Assembly (NCBI GenBank): GCA_965287045.1
Contig: OZ336878.1
Coordinates: 96,968,001 to 97,032,000 of the forward strand
Direction of reading: 5' to 3'
DNA length: 64,000 nt
Origin: Carcharhinus amblyrhynchos
Lineage: Eukaryota
Shown here one piece after another: positions 5,916 through 64,000 of this stretch. The position numbers and the translations under genes were made by a program. Position 1 is the stretch's first letter. Each line of letters begins with the position of its first letter. The notes under the pieces were generated by a model. The model did not search any database and had not been told where the DNA came from. It worked only from the letters and a program-made list of their open reading frames with translations.

Positions 5916-5987
5916 TGTCGTGACTCGGATTCGAACCGAGGTCGCTGCGGCCACAACGCAGAGTACTAACCACTACACAATCACGGC
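5916..5987 (-). tRNA. tRNA-His(GTG), 4 substitutions
   Basis: 72-nt match; A and B boxes intact; one acceptor-stem mismatch; TTTT terminator downstream. Confidence 0.75.
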
Positions 5988-60718: not shown

Positions 60719-60790
60719 TGTCGTGACTCGGATTCGAACGGAGGTTACTGTGGCCACAACGCAGAGTACTAACTACTATACGATCACGGC
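60719..60790 (-). tRNA. tRNA-His(GTG), probably impaired
   Basis: 72-nt match with 5 substitutions (G18, T-stem, anticodon stem, acceptor stem). Confidence 0.6.
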
Positions 60791-61214
60791 GCTACACATT
60801 AACTGCTATAGCAACGACTTCATGTTTCAACCTATACTTTCAACCAGGCCGTCAACAGAAAAACAACTCTCTGGAAAACAACAAAAGCAGAAAATCTGGA
60901 AAATAGCAGCAGGTCTGCCAGTTTCTGAGAGAGATCATTTCGCGTCCTGATCTCCCTTCGTCTCTCCGTGCATCATTCGGTCAGCGTCGGCAAACAAGCA
61001 TATTTCTGTTCTAAGTTCCGATATTTTCTAAAGCAACTTTCTGTTTGTTAAAATAAAGCAGAGTTACCAAAGCTTTTTTTTGGTTGGCTGGAAGTTACCT
61101 TTAATGTACTATAGGGAATAGCGCTGGGGCCTCAACATATGGCAATTGATATTACTGTCTTTGCGTGGTGGCGGTGGTGCGGGCTGGGGGTGCAGGTACG
61201 TGGGATGTTCTCCA

Positions 61215-61384
61215 CGGGAGTAACTATGACTAATTGTTTTGAGGTGAGACCTCTCACTGAGAGCGATCGGTGATATTTGCCGTTGTGATCGTTTTGGCGT
61301 ACTTTTAGCGATCAGAGCGCTAGTTCTGCCTCCTCGGGCCCCGCTGGTAACCTTGGTGCTTTAGGGCCGACGGCTAAATGACCA
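61215..61384 (+). ncRNA. HDV-like self-cleaving ribozyme of the R2 5' UTR (degenerate)
   Basis: P3/L3 gcc-tcctcg-ggc, P1' cccgct, P1.1 gg, P4 ccttggt/gccga(c)gg, J4/2 ctaa (C61374), P2 tagttct/atgacca (5 of 7 pairs). Confidence 0.7.
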
Positions 61385-64000
61385 CTCAGAAAAACTACGT
61401 ATTGGGTGATCTGGCGAGATCTGCGAAAAAAATGAGTGTTTTGCCTAGAAGGCAGGTGACCGGATGGGTTGCGAACCGGACAAACAACAACCCCGCAGAT
61501 GAGTCCGTAACCGCTCTCTGTGAAAAGTTAAAAATGCTAGGTTACACAGTAACTAACTCAAAAGAATTAGTAACAAGATCAGTCTCGACCCAGACGGAAG
61601 GGATGATCTTGAGACGAAATCAACCCGCTGGGCACTATTGAGTGATAGACTCGGGTCCTAGGCCAGAGGAACTTGTCGTCCCAATATGTGCAGAGGAATT
61701 GGCGGTTGTAGATGAGCCGGCTTGGACTGCCCATCCAGCCGAGGAGGTTGAGGTAACTGCTTGTACCTTCTACATCAAGGCCTACCAAACCCAAATTAAA
61801 GGAACAGGAACGATGGCTAACATCGCCAATACCGCAAACAATGGAGGTGCCCAGGATGAAGCCACCTTCATTGAGAAGTAATAATTGAACCATCACAAGA
61901 CCGCTCAGAGGTTAAGGAGGTGGTGATCCACTATCTCACTGATGCGTTGTATTGCAAGCCCTGTAATACCATACTCCCCACGGTTGGTGCGTTTAGAGAC
62001 CACCTCAAAACAGTGTACAAAACCAAGAACATTAAGGCCAAATGTTCTTGATGTGGTAAGTATGGGGAGTTCCACTCTATTGCCTGCCACTACCCGAAAT
62101 GTCAGGGTGAGGGTCGATCCTTGATAGTTGGGCAATATCAGTGCAGTGCTTGTGAGTTGGCCTTCACAACAGAGAATGGACTCAGCCAACACGAGAGACA
62201 CGGTCATCCAGTTCTTCACAATGAGAAACGCGCGAAGAAAGCACTGCCTAAAACCACAACCAAATGGGGTAAAAACATGAGTGTATGGTCCGAGGAGGAG
62301 GAATCACTCCTCAAAGAGCTTGAAAAGAGATTTGCTGGTGCCTGGTTTATAAATAAAGAGATTGCCAGTATTTTAACATCTAAAACTGGCAAGCAAATCT
62401 CAGATAAGCGCAGGTTGCTTGCAATTGCATGCAAAACAGCAAACACTGCAACACGGGCAGATGTTGATGTACATCCGGATTCCGAGCAAGAACAGGAACC
62501 GGAAGAGGCAGATGTCGGGAGCCCAGCCCCGCATGTAAGTATCGCTGGTAAACCTCCGGACCGAGTCCCTAAGTATAGGGACGTGGATGAACACCTGATC
62601 CAGGTGGAGGAGCTCCTGAATGCAAGGAATGATCCCGACAAACATGTCTTAGCAGTGGGTATAGTCGAGAGCATCACTGACCTTCTGATGGACGATGAGA
62701 CAAACAGGCAAAGAAAGAACGGTCTGACGGCAAAGGTACCTAAGAAAGGCACTCGGAAGGTAAGGCACGAGGTCAACAGCGGAGCCAGAAAGTGATGGGC
62801 AAAACAGAAATCCGTTTTCAGAGCAACTCAGCTGCTCTAGAAGAACAACAGGCGCCAGCTGGCCCGTCAAATCACGGGCATGCCGTCACAAATCACTTGT
62901 CCACTATCCATAACTGAACTGGAGGCAAGCTTTTGGGAGAAACTCTCCAGCCAGAACAATAAGGCAAATATAAGCAAAAACACACCATACAGCGGGCAAA
63001 CGGATAAGGGTGAGTTGATGAAGCCGATCACCACAGAAGAGGTTATCCAAGCCATCTAGGGTACTAAGGAGGCAAGTGCACCTGGACCAGATGGTCAAAA
63101 GTTGGAAGACATCCGAGACATCCATGAGGCATATGAGACCCGTATATCTCGCCTCTTCACTCTGTGGTTGGCCTCGAGAACAATCCCGAACTGTATGAAA
63201 CAGAGTTGGACAGTCCTTATCCCAAAGTGCCAGGATAAGGAACGGCTGAAAAGCATTGACAACTGGTGTCCAAATACGATCGGCCCAATGCTGCTACTAC
63301 GCCTCTTTGCCAAGATCACGGCGAAGAGACTGAGTGAGATAGTCGAAATAAACCCATGGCAGAAAGGGTTTTTAGCAGCAACTCCCGGATGCAACGAGAA
63401 CTTCGCAGTGTTGCAAAACATCATGAAGGGAACTAAGAAAAATCACAAGGACCTGGCCATTGTTTTTGTGGACCTGGCAAAAGCGTTCGACTCGGTGGGG
63501 CACAAGCTGGTCATCAGGTCATTACAAAGAACAAAGCTACCAAACGCCTTTGTAGAGCTTATTCAGGACCTCTGCACTGGCAACACAACGGTGGTCGAGG
63601 GCACAAAGTCCAAGACCGCCCCAGTAAACATTGAGAGGGGTGTCAAGCAGGGAGACCCGCTCTCTCCAATATTATTCAACATTCAAATGGATCCACTGAT
63701 ATGTAGTCTCGAAGAGGCGAGATCTGGTGTCAGCATGACGCTAGATGGAGCAAGAGTCAACTGCTCAGCCCTTGCATTTGCGGATGACATTGCCCTGCTT
63801 AGTGATTCATACGTCGGGATGACCCGTAACCTGAAGATTCTCCAGTCTTTTTGCGACTCGACAGGTCTGGCTGTCAGCACCAGCAAGACCAAAGGCTTCC
63901 ACTTTACCTGTAAGAGGAAGACCTTCATATACAATCAATGCAAGAACTGGCAGATTCGGAAGGAAGATATTGCATACATCCCCCCAGGAGAGGCTGAGAA
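61378..64000 (+). pseudogene. R2 ORF (ZnF x3, Myb, reverse transcriptase) with in-frame stops and one frameshift
   Basis: CKPC..DHLKTV(Y), CS*C..CHYPKC, CSAC..HERHGH, Myb WSEEEE..NKEIA..KTGKQISDKRR; RT SAPGPDG, DLAKAFD, GVKQGDPLSP, AFADD (63774-63788). Confidence 0.92.

Follow-up and report, generated by a model that had tools for sequence, protein, structure and literature searches.

Among site-specific retrotransposons R2 serves as the model, and R2 proteins of avian clade-A elements have found use in inserting genes into rDNA. The vertebrate clade-A elements treated in PMC13188248 (Hassan et al. 2026; PlaMe, R2Tg/TaGu and the chondrichthyan R2s) share with the element described here three zinc fingers, a Myb domain, a reverse transcriptase (RT) and a restriction-like endonuclease (RLE), the HDV-like ribozyme at -28 and the nick before TAG. 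The R2s in the accessible part of that paper are reported to have conserved 28S specificity, whereas the shark copies lie outside rDNA, are broken and sit, for about half of them, at one non-rDNA site. Dispersal outside 28S is known from R2NS-1_SMed and R2NS-1_CSi (Kojima et al. 2016, PMC5035012), presented there as non-specific flatworm elements of clades D and C; unlike them, the shark family belongs to vertebrate clade A and has a 28S leader, a 28S-like junction and a single-base hot spot. The avian R2 remnants with fragmented-28S or non-rRNA flanks (PMC5035012) are likewise old, disrupted clade-A copies outside intact rDNA, but the accessible part of that paper describes no target rule or recurrent secondary site for them, in contrast to what we find in the shark.

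In human cells, off-target insertions of R2Tg are described in the available part of Edmonds et al. 2025 (PMC12222951) as agreeing with the RNA tail over 4-5 nt downstream, matching upstream between -19 and -25, where -20 is T, and carrying a T/C patch close to -9, the same downstream match, upstream match and pyrimidine patch as in the shark. That system is engineered and over 99% on target, whereas the shark copies are a germline record over long times. R2 SIDEs (Eickbush and Eickbush 2012, PMC3414825), which combine a 5' ribozyme with the 3' end of R2 and lack a long ORF, resemble a 1,104-bp insert found here; unlike the SIDEs in the accessible text of that paper, it is vertebrate, contains repeated ribozyme-like units, has dispersed copies and aligns with the coding family over its last 53 nt only. 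According to the available part of a 2026 review (PMC13580325), R2 specificity is probably graded, the split into specific and non-specific elements is an oversimplification, and specificity is difficult to deduce from genomes, since copies inside rDNA and copies outside it disappear at unequal rates.

Results

A decayed clade-A R2 in the spacer of a tRNA-His array

The window, the whole stretch of 64,000 nucleotides that was analysed (G000:C9:96968001-97032000 in a 2.9-Gb genome), ends inside an R2 element of 4,894 bp whose 5' end is at 61215 and whose 3' end is at G000:C9:97034108. The features are collected in Table 1; the boundaries, domains and broken frame of this copy are direct observations. 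ZnF3, ZnF2, ZnF1 and Myb precede the RT in the clade-A order, which bears out the sequence-only reading, where clade A had been proposed from three zinc fingers and Myb. The last residue of ZnF3 is His in most sister copies. Past the window follow a zinc knuckle (CRRC..H..C) and then RHN and PDIV..LDVTV of the RLE (PD..D). The closest solved structures are the clade-A proteins 9NL2, 9NL3 and 9DOU (E ~1e-73; 1e-34 for 8GH6) and the closest database proteins are from sharks (67-70% identity), which points to a cartilaginous fish as the host. An RT phylogeny with vertebrate R2, a check that the first reading had proposed, groups the window element with the shark R2s (support 100/99), in a tree whose references lie outside clades C and D and whose deeper nodes are weakly placed. 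The protein P0005 falls in the same shark clade, and its N-terminus is that of the 28S-resident R2-1_CPu. Judged from its predicted domains and its descent, the element is a clade-A R2.

Table 1. Features of the R2 element and its surroundings, in window positions
Feature	Position	Strand	Detail
Decayed full-length R2-A, 5' 2,786 bp inside window	61215..64000	+	remaining 2,108 bp past the window
28S-derived leader, 28S positions -26 to -11	61215..61231	+	comparison with the genome's own 28S
Off-target site, upstream half, in tRNA-His array spacer	61192..61214	+	G-21, T-20, A-19 and AGG^TA as in 28S
Nearest tRNA-His, degenerate, 36.6 bits, 424 bp from junction	60719..60790	-	context, not target
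HDV-like ribozyme (predicted)	61215..61383	+	pair counting across copies
Ribozyme P1	leader with CCCGCT 61340-61345	+	leader GGCGGG pairs with CCCGCT
Ribozyme P2	61322-61327 with 61378-61383	+	pairing
Ribozyme P3	61328-61330 with 61337-61339	+	pairing
R2 ORF, N-terminal remnant	61462..61803	+	one stop, then frame change
ZnF3, CCHH	61953..62018	+	last His is Tyr in the window copy
ZnF2, CCHC	62043..62102	+	stop inside
ZnF1, CCHH	62142..62207	+	domain comparison
Myb domain	62286..62408	+	Pfam Myb_DNA-bind_6, E 0.004, under the curated cut-off
Reverse transcriptase core	63285..63914	+	RVT_1, E 2.6e-30

The window copy does not have the intact single ORF of an active element: its frame is interrupted by nine stops (eight in stretches aligned to P0005 and one in the N-terminal piece) and four frame changes. 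Its flank had been read as tRNA-His spacer and not rDNA, and indeed the window holds 13 tRNA-His genes in a degenerate array and no rRNA match in its 64 kb. Beyond the window the 3' junction, which the first reading had named as the place to look, returns to tRNA-His spacer with no 28S continuation, and this 3' flank is the same spacer as in two paralogous units, 11 and 15 kb downstream, that are without insertion. The locus is therefore not a rearranged rDNA fragment; tRNA-array spacer, and not canonical 28S rDNA, lies on both sides. Both flanks join up in the paralogous spacers, and by comparison with these empty units 1-2 bases were lost at insertion, without duplication.

In X5 record 21, a contig of another organism runs across the filled 3' junction, so the insertion is probably old; no bridging contig for the filled 5' junction was present among the longest pieces listed. 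Empty-site joints in runs X2, X5 and X6 were not accepted as evidence of an empty allele: the X5 and X6 contigs show a divergence of ~10%, as does the paralogous spacer next to the insertion. The tRNA-His array itself is loose and mostly degenerate and runs from window position 5916 to 60790 and on to G000:C9:97049000, with three more tRNA calls downstream of the window and spacers that are 68-90% alike. The array is incidental to the insertion, and the single window copy is by itself ordinary.

The leader edge and a predicted ribozyme

The genome's own 28S confirms the leader that had been recognized at the 5' end: CGGGAGTAACTATGACT is present and starts two bases inside -28. The two G at -28/-27 are missing from the window copy and kept by most sister copies, so the ribozyme of the window copy is probably dead. 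The 28S sequence that would follow, CTCTTAAGG, is absent, as first noted; this is a family trait, seen at the same junction in the 28S-flanked copy L086, and the basking shark element R2-1_CMax likewise leaves 28S at about -11 according to the available material of PMC13188248. Among 37 leader-bearing copies with non-28S flanks (eight with long 28S flanks and two mis-parsed ones being omitted), the 28S base is kept at -27 in 30, at -28 in 27 and at -29 in five, and this sharp -28 edge occurs in copies whose flanks are unrelated.

R2 cleavage at -28 with 28S in P1 is a known arrangement, as documented in the accessible part of PMC3774820. In the shark family the leader is likewise paired in P1 of an HDV-like double pseudoknot, with the first P1 position G-U in 12 of 18 copies. 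Of the ribozyme cells, 91% are paired, a level reached by none of 500 shuffles in a control that ignores kinship between copies, with a structure string that was hand-adjusted once (the first register gave 69% paired). Changes on both sides occur in four of the six P2 pairs. The pseudoknot is shown by pair counting only; minimum-energy folding of the window copy gave no significant result (z -1.4), and an Rfam search of the ribozyme region gave no model match. Predicted fold, covariation and the -28 edge agree with the 5' HDV-like ribozyme of clade A, the P1 end being lost in the window copy; by HDV topology, the catalytic residue is likely C at 61374.

Two further features of the 5' junctions were seen. 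The base before the leader is T in 20 of the 25 copies with GG at -28/-27, and in 13 of the 18 such copies outside the LINE site described below, where 28S has C; a non-templated A in the cDNA and CpG decay are both possible sources of this T. At L080:5780 (minus strand) the 28S leader stands three times in tandem at the 5' junction.

A dispersed family and its probable home in rDNA

An element-only search returned 42 matches to the element's 5' end, spread over many chromosomes; most of the best ones begin with the same leader. Among long copies, the 17 that match best show 82-90% identity to the window copy, and an older family, B, is ~68-70% identical to it. Among at least 67 protein matches, none lies on the rDNA contig C201, none spans the query unbroken, and neither an intact R2 nor, in assembled rDNA, a coding copy was found; we therefore infer, rather than observe, a master element in rDNA. 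The family tree is a ladder in which 28S-flanked copies are nested, and third codon positions differ between copies 1.6-2.4 times more than first positions, so the source would be a functional lineage. This pattern suggests that one functional lineage shed dead copies over time.

Use of the canonical 28S site by the lineage is suggested by those 28S-flanked family copies and by a derivative at the exact base. On contig C201, two of eight assembled rDNA units carry the 1,104-bp non-coding element at the canonical R2 base, and the 53 nt that it has in common with the coding family are 92-94% identical; a further copy of the derivative lies in 28S on C13 (L226). Copies 94-99% alike also occur outside rDNA, where they start at -28, so leakage continued late. 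A displacement of the R2 nick by ~22 bp upstream in 28S was considered and rejected, the rDNA junctions being canonical. The SIDE-like derivative, 1.1-1.3 kb long with repeated ribozyme-like units, comprises L077 and L078 (G000:C201), L226, L233, L234, L237 and L229, and an older type of it L220, L221, L224, L225, L227, L228, L230 and L235.

The related shark elements R2-1_STig, R2-1_SAc, R2-1_CMax and R2-1_CPu are listed with upstream 28S in Table S2 of PMC13188248, and two of the first ten of its 15 chondrichthyan rows give a 28S fragment only or no upstream 28S. Shark database proteins of the window's R2 lineage sit on scaffolds of 0.26-4.4 Mb. The large scaffolds and these two rows are hints that dispersal may be common to sharks.

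Several side observations concern the surroundings and interior of the copies. Dispersed 28S fragments around the R2 site reach from ~-20 to -185 upstream and from +15 to +45 downstream, and hold R2 copies, short stubs or a small nick deletion (L064, L065, L068, L101, L137 and L146, with further fragments of this kind at L223, L236, L036, L039, L085, L086 and L289); these are possibly reverse-transcribed pieces of the co-transcript. In family B, L277 and L283 have imperfect flanking duplications of ~89 and 107 bp; other sites have small deletions. Within the R2 3' UTR, L031:4600-4800 corresponds to a repeat of very high copy number (depth above 200,000), suggesting a putative SINE-like segment inside the 3' UTR of the family.

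Recurrent insertion at one LINE site

Gathered with their flanks, as had been proposed from the window alone, the genomic copies are dispersed outside rDNA and recur at one place. A search with the last 331 nt placed the 3' ends of 30 loci at a LINE hot spot (15), at a short 28S fragment outside rDNA (5) or elsewhere (10); with the remaining matches, counting five duplicates on C43 once and leaving out one match, there are 33 events of the window's family, 16 at the hot spot, five at a 28S fragment and 12 elsewhere. The hot spot is a single base in an APE-RT LINE and falls inside the codons KKGSRDNPGNY^RPVSL; of the final 16 insertions, two lie 3 nt off this base, and all are in sense to the LINE ORF. 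The host LINE has Exo_endo_phos and RVT_1 domains and 45-58% identity to bird LINE proteins, with no match named CR1; as CR1 predominates among bird LINEs, we label it provisionally as CR1-type. For elasmobranch genomes, the available part of PMC13343379 gives a CR1-group share of 22-34%. The empty site is present in at least 1,179 exact copies, far too few for the hot spot to be due to chance: the probability of 15 of 25 insertions there is below 1e-52 even with 100,000 sites.

Independence of these insertions needed testing because 69 of the 80 other 3'-end matches retrieved, from 189 genome-wide, are a single chimera of an R2 fragment and a LINE tail; for the same reason the 189 matches were not taken as 189 insertions. 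The chimera (69 of the 80 loci L097-L176, e.g. L125 at G000:C8:55323750-55330150) consists of an internally deleted R2 3' fragment of up to ~650 bp directly before a LINE-like tail, is found on many chromosomes with one common junction, and is apparently an R2 end captured and amplified by a LINE. The hot-spot insertions, by contrast with a composite of this kind, are independent, and a shared composite origin is rejected. Their hosts are spread over several LINE subfamilies, with 54-70% likeness between most of these; in the main subfamily, empty LINEs are interspersed among the nine hosts, and a single clade of the nine against 12 of 20 empty sites is rejected (p-AU 3e-6). Host and R2 trees disagree, L091 grouping with L087 in the former and with L089/L090 in the latter, and the 5' junctions differ among hot-spot copies.

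Hot-spot copies occur at the base, in the middle and at the tips of the family tree and also in family B, where L095 and L096 are the only copies at the site. A prediction set beforehand, that several hot-spot cases would be found among further loci, failed: of nine protein-found loci with a 3' end, none was there (of 14 new protein-found loci, 11 are family B-like and two are family A pieces without a 3' end). The hot spot thus has a strong hold in the window's family and a weak one in the older family. In place of GSRDNPGNYRPVSL, the LINEs of birds and turtles mostly have G(R/K/Q/W)KEDPGNYRPVSL, so the decoy may be weaker there. Possible minor hot spots are the LINE codons RSLK^(V/I)A, with three events (L040, L164, L023), and a similar repeat sequence that follows two family B events (L282, L284); L189, from a junction-pattern search, was a chance match and was dropped. 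The literature searched, with subscription titles mostly outside it, held no earlier report of an R2 hot spot in LINE/CR1 or of dispersed shark R2. None of five junction motifs occurs in supplementary file 7 of PMC13188248.

Target sites resemble 28S

The window site equals 28S at 16 of 30 positions between -25 and +5 (background 6e-4). At the LINE site, 17-19 of 30 positions agree once one base is removed (nick at ^ATAG), and 8-9 of 30 without this shift. Among junctions that are neither in 28S nor at the hot spot, 18 of 24 start with TA and 11 of 24 with TAG (P ~1e-12 each). Of the alternatives put forward in the first reading, relaxed specificity thus finds support in a graded sense. The LINE site shows all three features of the R2Tg off-targets, including T at -20 from the nick at ^ATAG, a base that is checkable at only a few other sites and is missing from the LINE paralogue of L164. 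The N-terminal domains of clade A bind only the upstream half-site, according to the accessible part of PMC11204384, so an upstream box plus a few primed bases would be a plausible minimal code.

Discussion

On the evidence presented here, we regard it as quite probable that the window copy is a dead full-length clade-A R2, one of dozens of off-target copies derived from a leaky, rDNA-based shark R2 with a LINE decoy. An rDNA-resident R2 lineage likely nicked imperfect mimics of its target elsewhere in the genome. The R2 RNA would be cut from a Pol I co-transcript at -28; ZnF1 and RT6a would read a GGGAGTA-like box ~20 bp upstream and the endonuclease would nick; the 28S tail of the RNA (A-UAGC) would then pair with 2-5 target bases and prime reverse transcription. 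Where 28S is not available for annealing, the 5' end would join by microhomology or end-joining, the leader being kept and a few target bases lost, and copies outside rDNA would escape rDNA turnover and then decay. The Gly-Ser-Arg and Tyr-Arg-Pro codons of an RT-proximal motif in shark CR1-type LINEs would spell both recognition halves at nearly the right spacing, so that more than 1,000 LINE copies would act as decoys. The sharp -28 edge, the ribozyme fold and the 28S-like target thereby uphold the original proposal that a ribozyme-processed full-length RNA was integrated off target.

The most substantial competing explanation is a change of host, in which a sub-lineage of R2 resides in CR1, uses the LINE promoter, carries its own portable ribozyme and retargets the same motif through a LINE-derived 3' tail. 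One well-supported clade, with seven of eight copies at the hot spot, in one LINE subfamily and without a 28S-flanked member, would fit such a change, as would the uniform sense orientation and a ribozyme that is self-contained once the leader is carried. Yet the leaders in this CR1-rich clade contain more 28S sequence (GACTCT) than does that of the window copy (GACTAA), as a renewed passage through rDNA would produce, its sister clade holds 28S-flanked copies, every copy is broken, and no LINE-tailed copy was seen at an unrelated site except the ambiguous, rearranged L174; we therefore consider a change of host unlikely. Inflation of the hot-spot count by duplication or by LINE-driven spread of composites, or a misassembled window locus, is less likely still and has a very small probability in our estimation. 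Composite spread is real in this genome, as the chimera attests, but the filled hosts do not form a clade, their tree disagrees with that of R2 and the junctions differ; as for misassembly, the continuity of both window flanks in the paralogous spacers and the contig of another organism across the 3' junction argue against it.

Loss of all specificity, with spread from dispersed copies as in R2NS, is similarly improbable. The shark family, like such elements, has copies outside 28S, dozens of them on many chromosomes, and the assembled rDNA holds no coding copy, but the shark junctions show a clear preference (the TA and TAG starts and the single-base hot spot) and the derivative occupies the canonical 28S base, so that the junction bias largely refutes this reading. 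The sequence-only reading had also raised a switch of specificity towards another tandem RNA-gene array. The window copy does lie upstream of a tRNA-His gene at the distance given in Table 1, and one other event, L023 (five duplicates on C43), is in a tRNA cluster; insertions that recur at a set position beside tRNA genes are nevertheless not what the genome shows, since 59 of the 60 other loci scanned have no tRNA nearby, the neighbouring paralogous spacer sites are empty, and the secondary target that does recur lies in LINE coding sequence. L023, too, has a 3' flank that is presumably a LINE remnant, to judge by its codon motif, which counts further against tRNA genes as the target. A switch to tRNA or other RNA-gene arrays is the least credible of these alternatives, with hardly any probability left to it.

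Taken as misses of a leaky rDNA-based R2, the off-target copies are likely a natural record of how an R2 enzyme misses its target. They provide a set of natural misses by a clade-A enzyme in the germline, dated and resolved to the nucleotide, which agrees with the off-target rule derived from cells, and the LINE site offers a concrete second substrate to assay. The conserved coding motif of an abundant LINE, as a ready-made target, would also represent a route to new specificities.
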